Shown here: one piece after another, positions 4,543-43,527 of the stretch | Layout of the letters: each line of letters opens with the position of its first letter | How positions within the stretch are numbered: position 1 is the stretch's first letter | Source: Squalus acanthias | Lineage: Eukaryota | Assembly: GCA_030390025.1 (NCBI GenBank) | Contig: CM059431.1 | Span: 149,174,001-149,238,000 of the forward strand | Direction of reading: 5' to 3' | Length of the DNA stretch: 64,000 nt | The notes under the pieces: generated by a model | What the model was told of the DNA's origin: nothing | What the model saw: the letters and a program-made list of their open reading frames with translations, nothing else | Database searches by the model: none | Translations under genes and position numbers: made by a program

Positions 4543-4894
4543 AACTCTGTCTATCAGGACGCTTCTCTATCTGCTCCCCATGATCTTTGAATGTAACAAT
4601 CTAATCAAGTCTCTCCCTCCCGGTGTCGTCTCAGGCCTCGGAGGAGGAGCAGGACTGAAGATGGGCCTAATCATTTTGGACTCAGTACCACACCCTGACA
4701 GCTCGCAACTTCAAGCAACGGCGAGAAATCATCCTGTCCTGGTTCAACCTCATCCAGACCCTGAGTGTGGCCATCGTATTCGGGGCAGTTTGGAGGCAAA
4801 TCCCGTAAGGGGTGGAACAGATCCAGGCCCAATCAGGATTTGTACGTAATTCACATAAACCCCTCCTTTCCATAGAAACTGTTCGGGCAGCCAA

Positions 4895-6218
4895 CGGGCA
4901 GAACTGAGGGAGCGCCGCACTGTCGGAGCGGCAGTACTGAGGGGCGATTTGCACTGTTGGAGGGGCAGTAATGATGCAGCTGTGCACTGTCGAAGGGCAG
5001 TACTGAGGAAGCGCCGCACTGTTGGAGGGGCAGTATTGAGGGGGCACTGCACTGTCAGAAGGGCAGGATTGAATGAGCACTGTACTGTCGGACGGGCAGT
5101 ACATAGGGAGTGACGCATTGTCGAATGGGCAGTACTGAGGGAGCGCTGCACTGTCGGAGGGACAGTAATGAGGAAGCGCTCCACTGTCGGAGGGAAGTAC
5201 TGAGGGAGCGCTACCCTGTCGGAGGAACAGTACTGAGGGAGACCTGCACTTTCGGAGGGGCAGTACTGAGGGAGCGCTGCCCTGTCGAAGGGGCAGTACT
5301 GAGGGAGCGCTGCCCTGTCGGAGGGACAGTACTGAGGGAGTGCTGCACTGTCGGAGGGGCAATACTGAGGGAGCGCTGCCCTGTCGAAGGGGCAGTACTG
5401 AGGGAGCGCTGCCCTGTCGAAGGGGCAGTACTGAGGGAACGCTACATTGTAAAATGGCAGTACAGAGCGAGCACTGCGATGTCGGAGGGGCAGAATTAAG
5501 GGAGCGCTGCACTGTAGGAGTGCAGTACTGATGGAACGCCACACTGTCAGTGGATCTGCACTGAAGGAGCGCTGCTCTACCGAAAGTGTGGTACGGAGGG
5601 AGCACTCCACTGTCGGAGTGGCTGTATTGAGGGAGCACTTCACTGTGGGAGAATCAGTACTGAGGTTCGCTGCACGTTCGGAGGTGCAGTACTGAGTGAT
5701 CGCTCCTCTGTTAGAGTGGCAGTACTGAGGGTGTGTGCTGCAGTTTCGGAGGGGCAGTACTGAGGGAGCGCTGCACTGTCGGAGGGGTAGTACTGAGGGA
5801 GTGCTGCACTGTCGGAGGTTTAACTGAGGGAGAACTGCTGTGTCGCAGGGGCAATACTGAGGGAGTGCTGTACTGCCAAAGTGTGGTACGGAGGGAGCAA
5901 TCCACTGTCGGAGGGGCAGTATTGAGGGAGCGCTTCACTGTGGGAGAATCAGTACTGAGGGAGCGCTGCACTGTCGGAGGGGCAATACTGAGGGAGCGCT
6001 GCATTTTCGGAGAAGCAGTACTGAGGGAGCGCTCCTCTATTAGATTGGCAGTACTGAGGGAGCGCTGCACTGTCGAAGGGGTAGTACTGAGGGAGTGCTG
6101 CACTGTCGGAGGGGTAACTATGAGGGAGTGCTGCACTGTCGGAGGGGTAACACTGAGGGAGTGCTACACTGTCGGAGGTGTAGTACTGAGGGAGTGCTGC
6201 AGTGTCGGAGGCCCAGTA
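4895..6218. repeat. 33-bp SINE-derived minisatellite
   Basis: Same unit as 1645-2248. Confidence 0.95.
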
Positions 6219-26859: not shown

Positions 26860-27200
26860 AAGAAAGAAAGACTTGCATTTATAGAGCGCCTTTAACGACC
26901 TTGGGATGTCTCAAAGCACTTTACAGTCAAATAAATACTTTTGAAGTGAAGTCAGTGTTGTACTGTAGGAAACACGGCAGACAGTTTGTACACAGCAGTT
27001 CCCACAAACACCATTGCAATAAAAACCAGGTCATCCGTTTTAGTGATGTTGATTGAAATAAGTATTGGCCAGAACACTGTGGAAAACTCCGCTGCTCTTT
27101 TTCGAATAGTGCCATGTGATCTTTTACATCCAGCTGAGAGAGAGCAGACGTGGCCTCAGATTAACGATGCATCCGAAAATCGGCCCATCCGGGAAGTCAG
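26860..27200 (-). mobile_element. SINE of the same family (3' two-thirds) running into the 33-bp minisatellite
   Basis: AGAAAGAAAGACTTGCATTTATA... is the reverse complement of the tail and body of 51792-52230. Confidence 0.8.
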
Positions 27201-29612
27201 TACACCCTCAGTACTGCAGCTCCGACAGTGCAGCGCTCCCTCAGTATTGCCCTCCGATAGTGCAACGGTCCCTCAGTACTGACTCTCCATCAGTGCAGCA
27301 CTCACTCAGAACTGCCCCTCCGAAAGTGCAGCACTCCGTCAGTACTGACACTCCGAAAGTGTAGCGCTCCCACAGTACTGCCCCTCCGACAGTGCAGCTC
27401 TCACTCAGTACTGACCCTCGGACAGTGCAGCGCTCCCTCAGTGCTGATCCTCCAACAGTGTAGCACTCCCTCAGTACTGACCCTCCGACAGTGTAGCGCT
27501 CCCTCAGTACTGACCCTCCGACAGTGTAGCGCTCCCTCAGTACTGACCCTCCGACTGTGAAGCGCTTCATCATTACGAACACTCCGACAGTGCAGCACTC
27601 CATCAGTACTGATTCTCCATCAGTGCAGCTCTCCCTCAGTACTACCCCTCCGACAGTGCGGCGATCTCTCAGTACTGCCCATCCGACAGTGCAGCTTTCC
27701 CTGAGCACAGAAACTCCGACCGTGCAGCGCTTCCTCAGTACTGACCACCTGACAGTGCAGCGCTCCCTCAATACAGAACAACCGACAGTGCAGCGCTTCC
27801 TCAGTAATGACCCTCTGACAGTTTAGTGCACCCAGTGTACTGACCTTTCGACAGAGCAGTGCTCCCTCAGTACTGACCCTCTGACAGTGTTGCACCCTCG
27901 GCACTGCCAATCCGACAGTGCAGCGCTCCCTCAGTCCTGCCCATCCGACAATGCAGCGCTACCTCAATACTGACCCTTCGACAGTGTAGCTCTCACTCAG
28001 TACTGACCCTCCGGCAGTGCAGAGGTCTCTCAGTATTTACCATCCATCAGTGCTGCTCTCCCGCAGTTCTGCCCCTCCGACAGTGCAGCACTCCCTCAGT
28101 ACTGCCCCTCCGACAGTGCAGCACCCCCTCAGTTCTGCCCCTCCGACAGTGCAGTGCTCCCTCAGTACTGCGCCTCCAACAGTACGTCGCTCCCTCAATT
28201 TTGCCCCTCCGACAGTTCAGCTCTCCCTCAGTATTGCCCCTCCGAGAGTGCAGCACTTCCTCAGTACTGACCATCCGACTTGGCAGCACTCCCTCAGTAC
28301 TCACCGTCAGACAGTTCAGCAATCCCTCAGTATTAACCCTTCGTCAGTGCAGTGATCACTCAGTACAGCCCATCCTAAAGTGCAGTGCTCCCTCAATACA
28401 GAACCACCGACAGTGCAGCGCTTCCTCAGTACTGACCTTACTACAGTTTCGTGCTCCCTCATTACTGCCCCTCCGACAGTGCAGTGTTCCCTCAGTACTG
28501 CTGGTCCGACAGAGCAGCGCTCCCTCAATACTGCGCATCAGACATTGCAATGCTCCCTCAGTACAGCGCCACCGACAGTGCAGCGGTACCTCAATACTGA
28601 CCCTCCGACAGTGTAGCTCTCACTCAGTACCGACCCTCCGACAGTGCAGCGGTCCCTCAGTACTGACCCTCCATTAGTGCAGCTTTCCCTCAGTCCTGCC
28701 CTTCCGAAAGTGCGGCGCTCCCACTGTACTGCCCCTCCGACAGTGCAGCACTCCCTCAGTATTGCTCCTCCAACAGTGTGGCTTTCCCTCAGTACTGACG
28801 GTCCGACAGTGCAGCACTCCCTCAGTACTGCCCCTCCGACAGTGCAACGCACCCACAGTATTACCACTCCGACAGGGCGGCGATCACTCAGTGCTCCCCA
28901 TGGGCCAGTGCAGCGCTCCCTTAGTACAGAACCTCAGACAGTGCAGCGCTTCCTCAGTACAGAACCTCCGACAGTGCAGCGCTTCCTCAGTACTGATCAT
29001 CCGACAGTGCAGCGCACCCTCAGTACTGCCCCTCCGACAGTTTATTGCTCCCTCAGTGCTGACTCTCTGACAGTTTAGTGCTCCCTCAGTACTGACCCTC
29101 TGACAGTGCAGCGCTCGCTCACTACTGACCATCCGACAGTTTAGTGATCCCTCAGTACTGACCCTCTGACAGTTTAGTGTTCCCTCAGTACTGACCCTCC
29201 GACAGTAAAGCGCTCCCTCAGCACAGAACCTCCGACGGTGCAGCGCTTCCTCAGTACTGACCCTCCGACAGTGCAGTGCTCCCTCAGTATTGACCCTCCT
29301 ACTGTTTAGCTCTCCCTCAGTACTGCCCCTCTGACAGTGCAGTGCTCCGTCAGTACTGACCTTCTGACAGTTTAGTGCTCCCTCAGTACTGGCCCTCTGA
29401 CAGTGTTGCTCCCTCGGCACTGCCCCTACGAAAGTGCAACGCACCCTCAAAACAGTGCCGCCGACAGTGCAGTGCTACCTCAATACTGACCCTCCGACAG
29501 TGCAGCGGTCCCTCAATACTGACCCTCCATCAGTATTGCCCTTCCGATAGTGCAGTGCTCCCTCAGTACTGCCTCTCCGACAGTGCAGCTCTCCCTCAGT
29601 ACTGCACCTCTG
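27200..29612. repeat. 33-bp SINE-derived minisatellite (reverse orientation)
   Basis: CCCTCAGTACTGCCCCTCCGACAGTGCAGCGCT units over about 2.4 kb. Confidence 0.95.
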
Positions 29613-35640: not shown

Positions 35641-35933
35641 TAAAGCTGCGAAATTTAGATTTTAAACTGTATACAGTAACAGTAAATGTGAAACAAACAA
35701 GTTTGATTTTAGCAAACAGTTAAGATCCCTGACTCACCCAACTCGCAGCACTATGTTTAAACCACACTCACATTCGTGAACCAGATGTGTTTTTACTACA
35801 AGCCGGTAGTTTCAAGGTTACCATTCCTGACACTAGCTTTTTATTCCAGATTTGTTTAATTAATTTAATTTAAATTCCCGAGCTGGTGGGATTTGTACTG
35901 CAGGGTATTTCGTCCGGACATCTGGTTTACTAG

Positions 35934-36696
35934 TGAAGGATCCAGCTTGTTCCCAAAGAATGCTGGGATACTTGACTACATTACTCTCTATTTATTTCGG
36001 ATAGTAGGTTTAGCTAATTAAGGCATATTTGTAGACTGGAAGGTGCCTCCCTCCCCTTATGAAACCTTGGGATATATGTATTCACTACCTCAGTAGAGCC
36101 ATTGTCAAAGCACAGCCTGGCCTCCCAAGAGATAAGGGAGCAATTAACAACCAACACAGTTCCAGGCACAAAGGGGTACATCTACTATTCGAACCTGGTC
36201 TCCCAAGAGATAAGGGAGCAATTAATGACCAACTTGGTTCCAGTCACTGAGCATCCAAGCCATTACGGCCTTGAGCCACCCCGCTCTGTCCGACAGCCAG
36301 GGATAAAATATGTTTTCTCAAACTATAAACTATGCCCGCAAAGGAAGAGATAAAGCAAGAATTTGGGGAGTAGGATGAGGCAACCAACATCTGTGACTGG
36401 CATGGTCAGGGTTCAAGGGGAGGGCCCGACAGTTGAGTGACTAACCATATAACCAATAGAGAGTAACTGTAGTGACACTGTTTGTACGTGTACGCCCCAT
36501 TCTGTAGTAAGTGGGCGCTGCTTATAGAAATGTATAACTTGAATGAACCGTTACTTGTTCCTCAGAGAGTGCGCCCCTAGCTTGAGGAAGCTGAGTGGCT
36601 CTCCCTTGTGCACAAGTCTTTTTTTTATTTTAATAAATTCTGAACTTGTCCTCAATTCCGTCTCCGTCTAGAGTTTCTCCAAATTCGAATCTAACA
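35934..36696 (+). repeat. 5' LTR
   Basis: TGAAGGATCC...AATCTAACA; internal ~40-bp direct repeat with AGATAA (about 36116-36155 and 36194-36233), CCAAT near 36453, TATA-like sequence near 36523-36536, AATAAA 36632-36637. Confidence 0.97.
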
Positions 36697-36698
36697 GT

Positions 36699-36716
36699 TG
36701 GTGTCAGAAGTGGGAT
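36699..36716 (+). promoter_or_regulatory. Primer-binding site, tRNA-Leu type
   Basis: TGGTGTCAGAAGTGGGAT 2 nt after the 5' LTR; complement of the vertebrate tRNA-Leu 3' end ATCCCACTTCTGACACCA. Confidence 0.92.
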
Positions 36717-36720
36717 ACTG

Positions 36721-36729
36721 CAGGTAAGG
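36721..36729 (+). promoter_or_regulatory. Putative major splice donor of the provirus
   Basis: CAG|GTAAGG immediately downstream of the PBS. Confidence 0.6.
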
Positions 36730-37306
36730 ACCATAGGAGTTAAAGACACTGGAAGTGACGGTTAAGGCGAGAACTGTGTCGAGTCCTAAGGGAAAAGCCA
36801 GAGTAAGGCATTTATAAGGAACACGGACTCACTCGTCACCGGTGGGGCTAAAACCATTTATGGTTCAGTCAGTATAAAAGTACCCACAACTTAAATTATT
36901 CCACACGGAGACCTGACTGACGGAATTGATTAGACATAAGTGTATTTTTTTCTGATTTAGAGTATAAGGTGAAAAGTGTATATTTCTGATTTAAAGTATA
37001 AGATTGGATCCTTGAGAGTCACTGGTGATCGACACGGACAAGGGTGGTTGTCTATCTCAAACACCTAGCCTGAGCCTGAATTAAGAGGGCGATTGGGCCC
37101 CACGTGACGGCCAGGATCAAGTAGGTGTAGAGAACTAAAACACCACAGGATCGTGATCCCGTGACGATTAAGTGTACGCAAAAAAACGGGTGACGACCCG
37201 GAGGGATTTAAGTTAAAGTCTGTTTAGATTGTAAGTTTGTGTCGCTTGTGCCGATTAATGTATAAGATAGAGTATAAGAATACACGTGACTATTTATATG
37301 GATCAC

Positions 37307-37704
37307 ATGGGAAACAAGGGGAGATCTCTTTCACCCGACGTTCCGGCTATGGCCATCAGTGTCACTGTCGTTCAACAGGTCCGAGAGGCTAATTTGAAAC
37401 TTCAGAGTGAAATGGTTAAAAAGGGGTGGAAAGAAATAAGCTCAGTAGCTGACCAAATAAAGTGGTGGGCGGAACAAAAATAAGCCAAACAAGCTAGGTA
37501 CGGGGCGGTTCTATGTACTAGTTGGATGGATCAGATGGGATCTATAATCGTGGATAAGGGGGGAAGACCGACCCCGTTTCAAGGATTCTTGAGACCTATG
37601 CAGGAGGCTAAAGTCCAAGTTAGCAATCTCCTGCACCTTAAGTCGCCAGGGACTGAGAATCTAGACGATTTGAAAAACTGGGGAGACCCCGGAAATCCAG
37701 GGTA
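37307..37704 (+). pseudogene. gag: gag-like N-terminal remnant
   Basis: ATG GGA start (MGNKGRS...) at the expected post-leader position; in-frame TAA at 37481-37483; frame stays open to about 37700; no capsid or zinc-knuckle motif seen, so the call is positional. Confidence 0.5.
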
Positions 37705-38996
37705 ACCGAGCCGCCGATTCGGCAGCCCGACAAGCTGTGTTGGTTATCCCTGTGATGGCCCTTAGTCCTAAGGAAGTAGCACAAATTGAAAAGGCTTCCC
37801 TGATCAACGATTTAACGAACGATACGCTCCTAACCGCGTACCTTTCCGAGTCCCCTGAGAATATACAGTTTTGGGTGCGTGAGGGAGCGTACAAAGACTC
37901 TAGTGGGTTTTGGCGTCACGAGACAAAGTACGTAGTTCCTACGTCGATTCGACGTGCCCTGATACAATCTTACCATGAGCCTGCACACGTGGGAGGGTAT
38001 AAGCTATATTACATTATAGCTGACACCTGGTGGTGGCCCAGCATGGCCAGAGAAATCCACGAGTACGGGCGCCTATGTCTGCCCTACCTCCAAACAGGAA
38101 TCAGGAGCCACATACGAGTGCGTATGGGGCACGCACGGCGGCCCAGGGGACCCTGGACGCACTTACAAATGGATTACACAGGACCCCTACCCCCCACTGG
38201 CGCGTATAACCATGTCTTTGTAGTCATCGACCTTTTTACCCGTTGGGTCGAGGCTTTCCCCACAAGGAGGAATACAGCTGAAGCAGCTGCAAAAATCCTG
38301 GCGATGGAAGTCATTCCCCGATGGGGAGTGCCTTACCAAATAGATTCTGACCAGGGAACCCACTTCACCGGCAAGGCTATGAAACAGGCTTTAGCCCTCC
38401 TGGGGGTTCGACAACGGTTCCACATCCCTTACCATCCGCAATCCTCAGGAATGGTGGAACGGATGAACCGTACTTTAAAACAATCTGTGACTAAGGCCAT
38501 TTTACAGACCGGAAAGGGGTGGCATGCAGTTCTCCCCGCCATTCTTTGGGGCATACGAGCCACGCCAGCCAAAGGTACTGGCTTATCCCCGTTCGAACTA
38601 ATGACTGGACGAGCTATGGTGTTACCCCAAGACGCACCCCCTCAGGGTACGGGGGACACTTCACAATTCCAGACAACCCTCCTGACATACCTACGCCTGA
38701 TCAGTGAGGCCAATCAGGCCAATCACTTTCGGGTCCAACACCTACAGGAGGCACAGGATGCCAAGGGACAAATGGGAGTTTGGAAAGCGCCTCCTCAAGT
38801 AGGACAGTGGGTGATGGTTCAGCGACCGGTTCGAGGTACCTTTGAGCCGCGCTGGGATGGGCCCTTCCAGATCGTCCTAAGTACAGGGACTTCCGTGTGC
38901 CTACAGGAAAAATTAGATGTAAGATGGAGACACTGGAGCCAGACTAAGCCGGTGACGGGGCCCGGGGAAGAGATTTCCCCACCTCTTGGAGACTGA
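37674..38996 (+). CDS. pol: Truncated pol: RNase H C-terminal helix plus open retroviral-type integrase
   Basis: Open frame from 37674 reads KTGETPEIQGNRAADSAARQA (RNase H GNxxAD motif); then HHCC region (YHEPAH...CLPY, last Cys replaced by Tyr), catalytic D (LQMDY), D (DSDQG), 35 residues, E (GMVER), and GPF motif (WDGPFQI); no in-frame ATG before the RNase H tail. Confidence 0.93.
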   Translation, partial: KTGETPEIQGNRAADSAARQAVLVIPVMALSPKEVAQIEKASLINDLTNDTLLTAYLSESPENIQFWVREGAYKDSSGFWRHETKYVVPTSIRRALIQSYHEPAHVGGYKLYYIIADTWWWPSMAREIHEYGRLCLPYLQTGIRSHIRVRMGHARRPRGPWTHLQMDYTGPLPPTGAYNHVFVVIDLFTRWVEAFPTRRNTAEAAAKILAMEVIPRWGVPYQIDSDQGTHFTGKAMKQALALLGVRQRFHIPYHPQSSGMVERMNRTLKQSVTKAILQTGKGWHAVLPAILWGIRATPAKGTGLSPFELMTGRAMVLPQDAPPQGTGDTSQFQTTLLTYLRLISEANQANHFRVQHLQEAQDAKGQMGVWKAPPQVGQWVMVQRPVRGTFEPRWDGPFQIVLSTGTSVCLQEKLDVRWRHWSQTKPVTGPGEEISPPLGD

Positions 38997-39168
38997 AAAA
39001 AAAAAGGTAAAATTCAGAATTTGCTGAGCGAAAGGAATCTTAAAGGGAATGCTGAGATCTCAGTCTGTGTGTAAGTCTGTGTGAAAGTCTGTGTGAAAGT
39101 TTCCTGACTATAAACTCTAAGAAGTTACGGTATTTCCTTGGTCTGAAATTCTGTTTTAAAAAGGGTGC

Positions 39169-39304
39169 CTGTTGTATCTGTTAGCTCCACCCACCTTTTG
39201 GTACAGAGAGCTAAAAGCTGTTAACCCTTTTGAGGAAATGTCTGTTGTATCTGTTAACTCCACCCACCTTTTGGTACAGAGAGCTAAAAGCTGTTAACCC
39301 TTTT
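39169..39304 (+). repeat. 63-bp direct repeat x2 in the proviral pol-ORF spacer
   Basis: CTGTTGTATCTGTTA(G/A)CTCCACCCACCTTTTGGTACAGAGAGCTAAAAGCTGTTAACCCTTTT at 39169-39231 and 39242-39304. Confidence 0.92.
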
Positions 39305-39473
39305 AAGCTGTCAACCCTTTTAAAGACATATTTGTTGTGTTCGTTTTACAATTAAAAAAAGAAATAAAAACAAGTATTGACCTGCCTTTTCTCCCCTATA
39401 CTTGATAAGGACCGGATTTCGAAGGATTAAGTCGGTTCCTCGGGTTGCTATTTTACCTGTCTCTTTCTTACAG

Positions 39474-40133
39474 ATGAGTGGGTCTGACCTCAGTAGTGCC
39501 ACCACTACCGGGGATGTCGAGTTTTCCACGGTCCAGGCTTTCGACTTAACCAGGGATCCCGCGAACTCACATTATTATACGACTCTAACCTTCCCCGGGA
39601 TTCACCCCTTGACTCTAGAGTTCCGGTTATCTCCCTTTTGTGGTAGGGCCACCGGACCCCTCGCTTTTCATCCCAACAGAACTCAGACTCTTTTATTCAC
39701 CCTACCCCGTGCAGGGGAGACTGACCGGTTCCGAGATACAGCTGCTCTTTGGGAACCGCTGGTGTCGGGACTGGAGGACCTTCCTCAGGGGATATCCACT
39801 CCCTATTATAGACCCTCCTACCTCCGAAGGAGGACAGTGCAACCTGTCTTCACCCATCCCCGTCCGACAGCTCCTAACCCTTACCGGATCACGTTAAGTC
39901 AGGTAAGTTACATTGAGCCACTGTCACAAGGCCACCGTCTCCGCCTCAATGCCACATATGAAGTAGCCCCAACCCCGCTCCGAGCCCTGCGCACACGGCC
40001 AATACCCGGACAGACAGGGAGAGAGACAGAGAGAGACAGAGAGAGAGAGAGCCTGCTAGTTACTACTGTACAAGCTAGTGTCGAGACAGATAAACAAATT
40101 GGACTCCTTCTGCCTAGCGGAGGTATAGGATAA
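39474..40133 (+). CDS. Orphan accessory-type ORF between pol and env (219 aa from ATG; possible internal exon 39474-39902)
   Basis: Strong acceptor TTTTACCTGTCTCTTTCTTACAG directly followed by ATG at 39474; consensus donor CAG|GTAAGT after 39902; no stop until 40131-40133; no recognisable domain. Confidence 0.55.
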   Translation: MSGSDLSSATTTGDVEFSTVQAFDLTRDPANSHYYTTLTFPGIHPLTLEFRLSPFCGRATGPLAFHPNRTQTLLFTLPRAGETDRFRDTAALWEPLVSGLEDLPQGISTPYYRPSYLRRRTVQPVFTHPRPTAPNPYRITLSQVSYIEPLSQGHRLRLNATYEVAPTPLRALRTRPIPGQTGRETERDRERESLLVTTVQASVETDKQIGLLLPSGGIG

Positions 40134-40135
40134 CC

Positions 40136-42223
40136 ATGGGGTGGCTTATCATGGAAATGATAGGGATACTGATCAGTGAACAAACAACACGCATCACGAC
40201 ACTGGGTTTCTGCGTCGACCGGTCGGGAGCCCCCCTTTTTCTCTGAAATGCCTACTGTTCCACACAAAACGCACAGGGGAGTCTGTACCAGTAAAATCAC
40301 AGGGAAGACGGACAGGATATGCTGTCAGAATAATGCGGTGCACTGGGACCCCTCATGCACGCCTACCTCAGAGAGATGTCAGACTTTCGGAATCATAGAA
40401 CAATACGTGGAGCCCGGTCTACCGCTGGTGATCGACAGCTACTGGGCTGCCCCCCCTACACCCCTGTCCCCAATGGTTTCCACAAAACATTTCCCCTCCG
40501 AGCGCGAGCCACTGACCTGCCCCCCTCGTGAAAGAGGGACCCGCTAGTGGGTTGGTGTTCACCCGTACTGGGGATATATTGTATGATAACGTGCGTCATG
40601 AATTAGTGTCAGTGGTGCTAAACCTGGCCAACACCGCCCTGCCTGCTTGGTGCTCACCACAAACCCAACAGTTATACCAGCGCCTTCTAACACAGGTATT
40701 GAAACAAGGCGCGGATCGTAGCGGAGGCGGATATAGACAGGGAAGCCGGAGGGTATGGCGACGTAAGAGGTCTTTAGTTAATGATGCAGCAACGATTTTT
40801 AACACTGGCACGTCGGTCGTTAACACCATTGATCTGGCTACCGTAGATCAGATGGTCCGGGATCTGGGTTACCGCATTAAAGCTATCTTACAAGAGCAAA
40901 ATAAGAATGAGGACCAAGAGTTAAAGGAGGACCAGATATTAACCGTATACCTGCAGTATATAGCTACTGTGTTAGAAACACACGCACAGACTATAAATAA
41001 GTTAATTAAAGAAGAATACAATGCCTCACAGCAGGCAGCAGCAAACGACGTTTGCAGCACATATGGGAATTGGATAGTGGAGCAAACCCGAGAAAACCTG
41101 GAACAGATACAGGCAGGGGAGGTACCCCTGTGGATTACCAACCAACAGTTAAAAGGGACCCTGGCTCGCGGACACGCTGGGGCGGGTACACCCAAACATC
41201 TCTTAAGTAGCCTCAATATGACAGTTTGTCAATTCCGAGCCATGGTACGGGTATTCCCCACGCAGGTTGAATGCAGACCAGACGGGGGGGGGATTTCTGG
41301 GGCTAATTCTGGTCGTCCCGGTAATGACACCAGAGACACAAGGGCGGGAGGTGTATCAGGTACAAAATATTGGTATACTAAAAGATGGCATGCATATATC
41401 TTACCACAATATGTTACCTTGCGCAGTGATGGTGAAAGGAGATTGGATGGTTACCAAGCTGGAGAGATGTGTCACCAGACATGCCATCATCATGTGCCCG
41501 CATGCAATCAGCCAAAGCCCGCAAGCCCAATGTGGTTTTAATAACACAGGCATGGAAATTAACTGCACCATGGAAGCATTGGACGCAGCCTCAAAGCCTA
41601 CCCAGGTGGCGTACGCCAGCAAAGGCGAATACTGTGTGACGACCAACCTGAAAACGTTTGAGTATGCCAATCTAACTTGCAACATCCCCAGTTCAGAGTT
41701 CTGCTTCTACCCCGCAGTTCCGGTACGGATTGGACATGAGGAATTGGTGGACATACACCAGTTTGATATTACCTTTCTTCAAGTGTCTGAAGACGTCAAG
41801 TATGGATTATGGGACTACATCAACACCTTTGGGTATCCTATACCCCCCCTGCCCGAACTCCTGAGGCAGTTGCGAAAGGAGATACGACTCTCCCAGAAGG
41901 TGTACTATACTCTACAACAACGGAACACGGATCTGAAGAAAGATATCGACGCGATCAAGGTGACCACATGGCTGGATGACATTTGGGACTGGGGACTAAA
42001 TATACAGATCCATCCATGGATCCGATTGATTTCACATGTATTAGTCGTGATGCAGTTAGTAATTGTCCTGACCTAGTTATGTATGACATGCAGGAAATGT
42101 AAACGGACTCGGGCTAAACAAATTGCAAAGCAAGCGGTTAAAACTGTTAATGCGTGCACTGCTCCTACTCCAAGTGTTGCAGATGATGATTTTGACAACT
42201 TGTTGGAGAAATCATGTGCATGA
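40136..42223 (+). pseudogene. env: env-like class I fusion glycoprotein with F-protein-like layout, disrupted
   Basis: Kozak ACCATGG at 40136 with hydrophobic leader MGWLIMEMIGILIS; furin site RRKR at 40759-40770, then a fusion-peptide-like segment and heptad region; Cys-rich middle; second heptad; W-rich WLDDIWDW; TM segment; basic tail. Three +1 frameshifts at C6T5 (40230-40240), C6 (40520-40525) and G9 (41284-41292), plus TAG at 42074-42076. Confidence 0.88.
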
Positions 42224-42550
42224 ATAATGAAGCAAATATATAATGAATCGGGGAATGCCTAAATAGCAACTTCACTCATCTGATGCATACCTGGTGCCTA
42301 GACGGGTGGCCACCCCGACAGGACTCACACCAGACCACATGCAACGAATGTGCGGCCTACCTGGAATAGCCAAAGGCCTAGGGGGAAGTATAGAATAAAT
42401 TGGGTGGGTTTACAGGTAAACCTTCATCATTCGTGCTAGTTGATCCGGGAAAAACCTATATGCGTTTCTGACATATTATACACTCACTAGCTTATCACAC
42501 TATTTAGCGTAGAGAGCACACTCTCCAACCCCCTTTAAGGGTCCTTTTCG

Positions 42551-42568
42551 GGGGATTGGAAGGGGGGA
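42551..42568 (+). promoter_or_regulatory. Polypurine tract
   Basis: GGGGATTGGAAGGGGGGA ending 1 nt before the 3' LTR. Confidence 0.88.
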
Positions 42569-42569
42569 C

Positions 42570-43332
42570 TAAAGGATCCAGCTTGTTCCCAAAGAATGCT
42601 GGGATACTTGACTACATTACCCTCTCCTTATTTCGGATAGTAGGTTTAGCTAATTAAGGCATATTTGTAGACTGGAAGGTGCCTCCCTCCCCTTATCAAA
42701 CCTTGGGATATATGTATTCACAACCTCAGTAGAGCCATTGTCAAAGCACAGCCTGGCCTCCCAAGAGATAAGGGAGCAATTAACAACCAACACAGTTCCA
42801 GGCACGGGGGGTACATCTACTATTCGAACCTGGTCTCCCAAGAGATAAGGGAGCAATTAATGACCAACACGGTTCCAGTCACTGAGCATCCAAGCCATTA
42901 CGGCCTTGAGCCACCCCGCTCTGTCCGACAGCCAGGGATAAAATATGTTTTCTCAAACTATAAACTATGCCCGCAAAGGAAGAGATAACAGCAAGAATTT
43001 GGGGAGTAGGATGAGGCAACCAACATCTGTGACTGGCATGGTCAGGGTTCAAGGGGAGGGCCCGACAGTTGAGTGACTAACCATATAACCAATAGAGAGT
43101 AACTGTAGTGACACTGTTTGGACGTGTACGCCCCATTCTGTAGTAAGTGGGCGGTGCTTATAGAAATGTATAACTGAAATGAACCGTTACTTGTTCCTCA
43201 GAGAGTGCGCCCCGAGCTTGAGGAAGCTGAGTGGCTCTCCCTTCTGCACAAGTCTTTTGTTTATTTTAATAAATTCTGAACTTGTCCTCAATTCCGTCTC
43301 CGTCTAGATTTTCTCCAAATTCGAATCTAACA
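42570..43332 (+). repeat. 3' LTR
   Basis: TAAAGGATCC...AATCTAACA; matches the 5' LTR with roughly 20 differences by eye; the initial TG reads TA in this copy. Confidence 0.97.
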
Positions 43333-43527
43333 CTAGTTCAGCAACAAAACAACTATAAAACCGTACCCTTCAAATATATCGCCGTTCCTTCATCATCACT
43401 GGGTCAAAAGCCTGAAATTCCTTCCGTAACAGTATTGTGGGAGCACCTTCACCACACGGACTGCAGCGTCTCAAGATGAAGACCCACCAATCCAATTTAT
43501 CATGGATAAATAGGGATGGGCAAGTAA

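Follow-up and report, generated by a model that had tools for sequence, protein, structure and literature searches.

A provirus with an additional open reading frame ahead of env

The window analyzed here, a stretch of 64,000 nucleotides from Squalus acanthias, contains a provirus of 7.4 kb that extends from LTR to LTR (35934-43332), with all its features on the forward strand. The 5' LTR (TG...CA, 35934-36696) differs from the 3' LTR (42570-43332) by 18 mismatches and 2 gap columns in 762, and the pair is flanked by the target-site duplication CTAG (35930-35933 upstream, 43333-43336 behind the 3' LTR). The primer-binding site (PBS, 36699-36716) is presumably of the tRNA-Leu type, and the major splice donor CAG/GTAAGG (36721-36729) cuts after 36723, 7 nt behind it. 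A 5' remnant of gag with a stop inside (37271-37705) resembles the 492-aa gag frame of another family member, L047, which has zf-CCHC matches. The remainder of gag, the protease and the reverse transcriptase (RT) have been deleted, fusing this remnant to the end of RNase H and the integrase (IN; 37674-38996; Pfam rve at 7e-18, Integrase_H2C2, MLVIN_C). The env region (40136-42223), with its signal segment, RRKR site, heptad region and TM, is homologous to env frames of 660-760 aa in related families; it matched no Pfam family and no PDB sequence, and its layout fits the F-type. In this copy it is broken into several frames, which, together with the internal deletion in gag-pol, makes the provirus defective. 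A polypurine tract (42558-42569) precedes the 3' LTR.

Between pol and env lies an orphan open reading frame (ORF, 39474-40133) that opens with an ATG at 39474, runs for 219 codons and ends with a TAA at 40131-40133, leaving a 2-nt gap before the env ATG at 40136. It is preceded by a splice acceptor (39449-39473). A consensus donor, CAG/GTAAGT (39900-39908), falls after 429 nt, or 143 codons, of the ORF (cut after 39902, phase 0), a length-variable GA microsatellite lies at 40016-40052, and a weak candidate acceptor with 10/14 pyrimidines (40104-40117) would join 18 nt before the env ATG and in frame with it, although its use was not seen. An initial sequence-only reading had described the ORF, its splice signals and the 2-nt gap, all of which are indeed present in the window. 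Repeats are also found here: a 69-nt tandem duplication (96%) at 39166-39307 in the AT-rich spacer between pol and the ORF, and, elsewhere in the window, long arrays of 33-nt minisatellites at 27138-29500, 1900-2300 and 4700-5500 that give rise to spurious ORFs.

The ORF belongs to a family of recombinant proviruses

The ORF family occupies about 120 loci in the genome. A search with the full-length ORF gave 152 matches, with 150 of 212 candidates scored, and two half-length searches in which all candidates were scored gave 130 matches of 132 and 125 of 149. The half-length searches returned only this ERV family and one chance match (E 0.018), which lies in a frame that looks to us like a Harbinger-type transposase. 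For further analysis we used 89 non-self ORF loci, namely the 29 with the highest scores and 60 chosen further down the ranking; L044 was dropped from the projection, leaving 88.

The members are recombinants that mostly form pol-deleted subfamilies, and env has been replaced in some of them. Across members we could recognize gag with zinc knuckles, protease, an RT with the YVDD motif, tether, RNase H and IN. The RT has its best PDB hits in MLV and foamy virus RT, and L032 carries both RT_RNaseH_2 and RNase_H, a dual RNase H that is common to all retroviruses. In two members (L047:3498-3502 and L113:7556-7560) a single in-frame stop codon divides gag from pol, which suggests read-through as in gamma- and epsilonretroviruses. 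In L011/L012 and L021/L023/L024, copies on the same contig lie 6.2-6.3 kb from each other, which suggests tandem proviral arrays. In L033-L048 and L050, recombination has combined the family's LTR, gag 5' end and ORF with parts of IN and env from other families and with stretches of LINE sequence, and these recombinants have spread as non-autonomous elements.

Amino-acid changes are depleted in the ORF frame only

The ORF ATG is kept in 85 of 87 copies, and the core is undisrupted in 47 of the 89 copies, whose selection favoured good ORF scores. We used variants present in at least 3 of 88 copies as a proxy for changes passed on during the spread of the element, with counts that ignore phylogeny and sharing thresholds (3, 5 or 8 copies) that are our choice. 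In the ORF frame, the variants shared by at least 3 copies comprise 56 synonymous and 83 non-synonymous changes (omega 0.60, p 0.002). Omega is 0.81-1.37 in the other five frames over the ORF and 1.10 for rare variants in the ORF frame, which behave as neutral, while a non-coding intergenic control gives 0.64-1.26 with no frame significant. Eighteen of the 88 copies (L036-L044, L070, L073-L076, L078, L080, L083, L084 and L088) share one early frameshifting deletion that cuts the ORF down to an upstream ORF of about 25 codons; most of them also lack the internal donor. These subfamilies have spread with the ORF broken, and their pol and env are likewise broken or replaced. Without them, the ORF omega falls to 0.52, 0.46 and 0.39 at thresholds of 3, 5 and 8 (p 1e-3 to 1e-4), compared with 0.34 for IN, 0.41-0.46 for env and 0.43 for gag. 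The comparison of sibling copies proposed in the sequence-only reading thus finds a depletion of amino-acid changes, with omega between 0.39 and 0.60, that is confined to the ORF frame.

Codon positions show the same pattern in the middle of the ORF, with a third-position divergence of 0.167 versus 0.06 and 0.09 at the other two, and a weak bias over the first ~22 codons (0.21/0.11/0.20). Sibling copies do not combine a decayed ORF with open IN and env: distinct disrupting events number 2.3 per 1000 codons in the ORF core and 2.4-3.5 in env and IN, in loci picked by ORF score, which favours the ORF. The core of about 176 codons (39474-40001) is thus under purifying selection during the spread of the family, and its frame is open outside gag, pol and env across independent insertions.

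A non-coding passenger insertion that happens to be open would be in line with the lack of homologues, the poor structural models described below (pLDDT 33 and 41), an omega above that of IN and an unstable C-terminal tail. It would not produce a frame-specific excess of synonymous changes or a third-position bias, nor the retention of an ATG that, lying upstream, should cost env expression. We consider it very improbable, and have little doubt that the ORF is a real protein-coding gene.

The C-terminal tail differs between clades

Conservation of the ORF ends near codon 176. Behind about codon 180 the copies run in three different frames, because the GA microsatellite varies in length and the clade of the window has a short insertion near 40064. 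The 219 codons and the stop 2 nt ahead of env, which the sequence-only reading had noted, therefore hold for this clade and not for other copies. Neither of two tests detected significant selection on the tail frames; among the three, the long-tail frame, found in several older copies, has the lowest omega (0.40-0.69, p 0.11-0.33).

This long tail raises the question of a single-exon RNA export factor of the Rev/Rex kind. The export-signal consensus is L-x3-L-x2-L-x-L, and 4 of 20 aligned proteins, all in the long-tail frame, have such a motif in their tail. The core is basic (pI 9.6, with 18 Arg in 176 residues, and one cysteine). The pattern is nevertheless common in leucine-rich helices, a long Arg tract is absent, the tail frame varies between copies with no significant selection, and the clade of the window lacks the motif altogether. 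Sister families also do without the gene. We regard an export function as improbable.

The protein has no detectable homologue

Searches of Pfam, PHROGs, PDB sequences, the ESM Atlas (twice) and IMG/VR found no homologue of the ORF protein, and a word-indexed search gave 334 candidates with none at E<=0.01. The only hit in a profile search of 1.84 billion representatives, P0001 (E 5e-7), was rejected: it is a repeat protein from a bacterium, its score adds up 7 weak stretches, and the hhalign probability is 1.5%. Comparison with env alignments did not reveal similarity. In the openly accessible literature that we searched we found no description of this gene, and such an ORF is not mentioned in the available part of 10.1101/2023.10.26.564294; it may be annotated in subscription papers or repeat databases.

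AlphaFold2 models have a pLDDT of 33 (full length) and 41 (core), and suggest a beta-rich domain with one or two helices. Fold searches with the better of these poor models (pLDDT 41) gave only noise (best Foldseek E 0.03, best VIA-align Z 4.7) and no match in BFVD. The protein has neither a signal nor a membrane segment, with a maximum 19-residue hydropathy of 0.68. Vpu is a small membrane protein that overlaps env. The N-terminal transmembrane helix that marks the Vpu family is absent here, given the same hydropathy maximum and no Pfam match at E<=1.

The place of the ORF ahead of an F-like env and its predicted beta-alpha-beta layout recall, in what we take to be a loose resemblance, the matrix protein M of rhabdoviruses. 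They could point to a matrix gene that the family acquired from a negative-strand RNA virus, either along with its F-type env or later. Yet Pfam, PDB, BFVD and VIA-align returned no match, with the caveat of a poor model (pLDDT 41), and the other env families of the genome lack the ORF, which therefore did not arrive with env. We give this origin hardly any weight.

The ORF start codon is the first behind a spliced junction

The stretch occurs in 8 sequencing runs from 2 studies and 2 organisms, all of them contigs; none is recorded as RNA, and their RNA nature is a guess. The sequence-only reading had predicted a junction from 36723 to 39474, and precisely this joint, with GT..AG ends, occurs in 4 of the 8 probable RNA runs (X1, X2, X4 and X6). 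The short side of the junction contigs measures 27 nt in three of the four and 51 nt in X1. In the genome, the leader does not lie directly ahead of any of the 85 ORF starts examined, so these copies do not account for the joint; the transcripts could stem from copies other than that of the window. The orphan gene is probably still transcribed and, since a spliced message is present, its protein may still be made in the host. Positions 37706-38308 are not covered in the 8 contig runs, which is a blank only.

The acceptor itself is the most pyrimidine-rich (12/14) among the 17 YAG sites with at least 10/14 between 36723 and 42570. Its CAG is intact in all 87 copies that cover it, and it is 98.6% identical in 45 divergent copies versus 83.8% just upstream. 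A single splice from 36723 to 39474 puts the ORF AUG ahead of all others downstream of the junction. The context of this AUG is weak (C at -3, A at +4), and that of the env AUG, 662 nt downstream, is strong (A/G at -3, G at +4). In two of the three ORF frames, the stop codon is no more than 7 nt from the env AUG. This arrangement suits leaky scanning or a stop-restart mechanism. There are, however, further AUGs between the acceptor and env (39514, 39949 and 39958), and together with a 219-codon ORF that is long for re-initiation they mean that env may use an acceptor that we did not see. Contigs cross the ORF-env boundary, which is compatible with more than one transcript.

The internal donor at 39902 suggests two ways in which the ORF might be a first exon. 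In one, its first 143 codons would be spliced to 40118 and form a long cytoplasmic leader of Env, as in foamy viruses, where the Env leader contacts Gag (PMC3667135, available part). Such an arrangement would explain how Env is translated, and several features agree with it: the donor is in phase 0, 40118 lies 6 open codons ahead of the env ATG, and where the linker contains a stop, the env of the clade has mostly been replaced or broken. Against it, the donor is missing in env-bearing copies such as L047, the AG of the 40104-40117 acceptor is missing in L049 and in the L033 clade, and codons 144-176 stay conserved (omega 0.39-0.59, not significant alone). We therefore judge an Env leader to be unlikely.

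In the other, put forward in the sequence-only reading, the ORF would be exon 1 of a two-exon regulator of the Tat/Rev type, with a second splice leading from 39902 to an acceptor within or downstream of env. The donor is a perfect 9-mer at a codon boundary, and 67 of 88 copies have retained its GT. Splicing to candidate acceptors at 41718, 42440 or 42508 would extend the protein by 48, 16 or 49 codons, respectively, and SnRV, whose RT looks the nearest by eye, splices complexly (PMC12193657, as far as available). These acceptors are nonetheless no stronger than background, the donor sits inside the best-predicted hairpin of a low-confidence model, and the GT is missing from 21 of 88 copies through a clade-wide loss that changes V conservatively to I. 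For both arrangements the transcripts are unfavorable: no joint from 39902 or to 40118 is listed in the 8 runs, and contigs run through both sites (X6 record 14 and X8 record 28 cross the 39902-40118 region), bearing in mind that contigs cannot show absence. The donor is probably incidental or of minor use. An uncharacterized accessory protein expressed from a spliced mRNA, as initially proposed, thus stands on the junction and on selection; its extension to a two-exon regulator is a poor fit with the loss of the GT, with conservation that continues to about codon 176 and with the absence of a listed 39902 joint, and we think it has only a slim chance. Single-exon, bicistronic expression is the probable mode.

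A sister family has the same acceptor and no ORF

A search with the env fusion region, in which 150 of 6659 candidates were scored, gave 20 loci of related families. Seven of these form a sister family with an env about 75% identical and with the PBS (an identical 18-mer) and acceptor of the ORF family. All 7 copies have the acceptor, carry ACG in place of the ORF ATG, and have env as the first ATG at +104/105 nt. The acceptor is hence an ordinary env acceptor, and the ORF amounts to ~560 extra bases in the env leader. In a DNA alignment, its first ~22 codons (39474-39539) are homologous to the sister family's env leader, which contains no AUG. In the more distant families covered by the comparison, which does not extend to L101-L104, env follows directly behind pol. 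The seven sister copies (L092-L097 and L099) have gag and pol deleted, with open env frames of 688-690 codons in some, and the major donor of this family lies at a different place behind the PBS.

The same comparison bears on whether the segment is simply the true 5' part of env, the case that the sequence-only reading had named as fatal to an accessory gene. We rejected a contiguous env 5' part: the ORF is in a different frame, the start of env aligns with that of the sister env, and env has its own ATG and a hydrophobic signal segment, which the ORF lacks.

A profile search found no ORF homologue in 22 loci of other families and elements, and the source of the ~560-base segment was not found among them, with no similarity at the protein or DNA level. 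A gain of the gene must lie at or just below the ORF-bearing family. In the env tree the ORF rows form one side of a branch with support of only 47/55, which does not settle gain versus loss.

The env of the window (40136-42223), L051 and L092-L111 belong to a very large and diverse ERV group (6659 first-look candidates) that combines an F-type env layout with RTs that look like those of SnRV and unlike those of Loki.

Discussion

Our proposal is a lineage-specific accessory gene located in the leader of the spliced env mRNA, which probably carries both the ORF and env in the manner of HIV-1 vpu/env, a reading to which we assign a probability of roughly 0.6. Splicing of the donor at 36723 to 39474 would place the ORF AUG first on the env message, from which the ORF would likely be translated as a soluble protein. 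Env would likely be made from the same mRNA by leaky scanning or re-initiation. The protein, predicted to be basic, beta-rich and non-membrane, might then act inside the cell on a host factor, in a counter-defence role of the Vif/Vpr/Vpu class. This last step is the weakest of the scheme, and we put the intracellular role forward tentatively, as a function deduced from these properties. Since sister families have spread without the gene, the protein would be dispensable for the core replication cycle.

We also considered a more elaborate scenario in which a new protein of unknown fold arose by capture or insertion into the env leader, part of which was recruited as its N-terminus, and in which the internal donor lets the exon be used in either of two ways, as a foamy-like leader of the F-type Env or as an independent protein for export or counter-defence. 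Taken as a whole, we find this combination rather unlikely.

The accessory gene on the env message has precedents. As described in the available part of PMC2657110, HIV-1 vpu and env are expressed from a bicistronic mRNA, and the ORF shares with vpu its place ahead of env on the env message, a weak first AUG and a lineage-restricted distribution. Unlike Vpu, the protein is ~176-220 aa long and lacks a hydrophobic segment; its frame closes ahead of env, and its sequence is not similar to that of Vpu.

Ray-finned-fish foamy-like ERVs carry homologue-less ORFs between pol and env that are under purifying selection, namely ORF-1 of DrFV-2/PpERV-1 and ORF-1/2 of AcERV (PMC5210030) and acc3/acc4 (PMC5512871), according to the parts of these sources that were available. 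The category of orphan pol-env ORFs is thus already known; what appears new is the protein itself, with its position in the env leader. By their description in the same sources, the foamy-like ORFs are set apart by lengths of 334-465 aa, very large genomes and 3' accessory genes, whereas the present family has one shorter ORF, a gag (zinc knuckle)-pol-env genome, an observed splice junction and an ORF-less sister.

The RT motifs of this family and its relatives match best, by eye, the SnRV row in the part of the PMC7947760 supplement that we could consult. The SnRV clade also has complex splicing and small accessory ORFs (PMC12193657 and PMC6001957, available parts), but the SnRV ORFs given there (52, 94, 76 and 205 aa, PMC12193657) differ from ours in that the largest lies 3' of env. 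Lokiretroviruses, in the available part of PMC7947760, share with this family an F-type env layout (signal, RxKR, heptad, TM), a dual RNase H and an occasional extra gene, smc, to which the ORF has no match. That source reports none in 6 chondrichthyan genomes, and its Loki rows have the RT motif WNRCPFGY where we find WTRLPQGF. Compared by eye, these motifs would point away from Loki and towards SnRV.

The literature that we found describes hardly any accessory genes in the retroviruses of cartilaginous fish. An ORF-bearing family and an ORF-less sister that use the same acceptor in one genome offer a before-and-after view of the gain, or shedding, of a gene on the env message. The ORF protein can be studied singly for its fold, location and partners, and accessory genes point to the host defences and the export bottlenecks with which a retrovirus had to cope.
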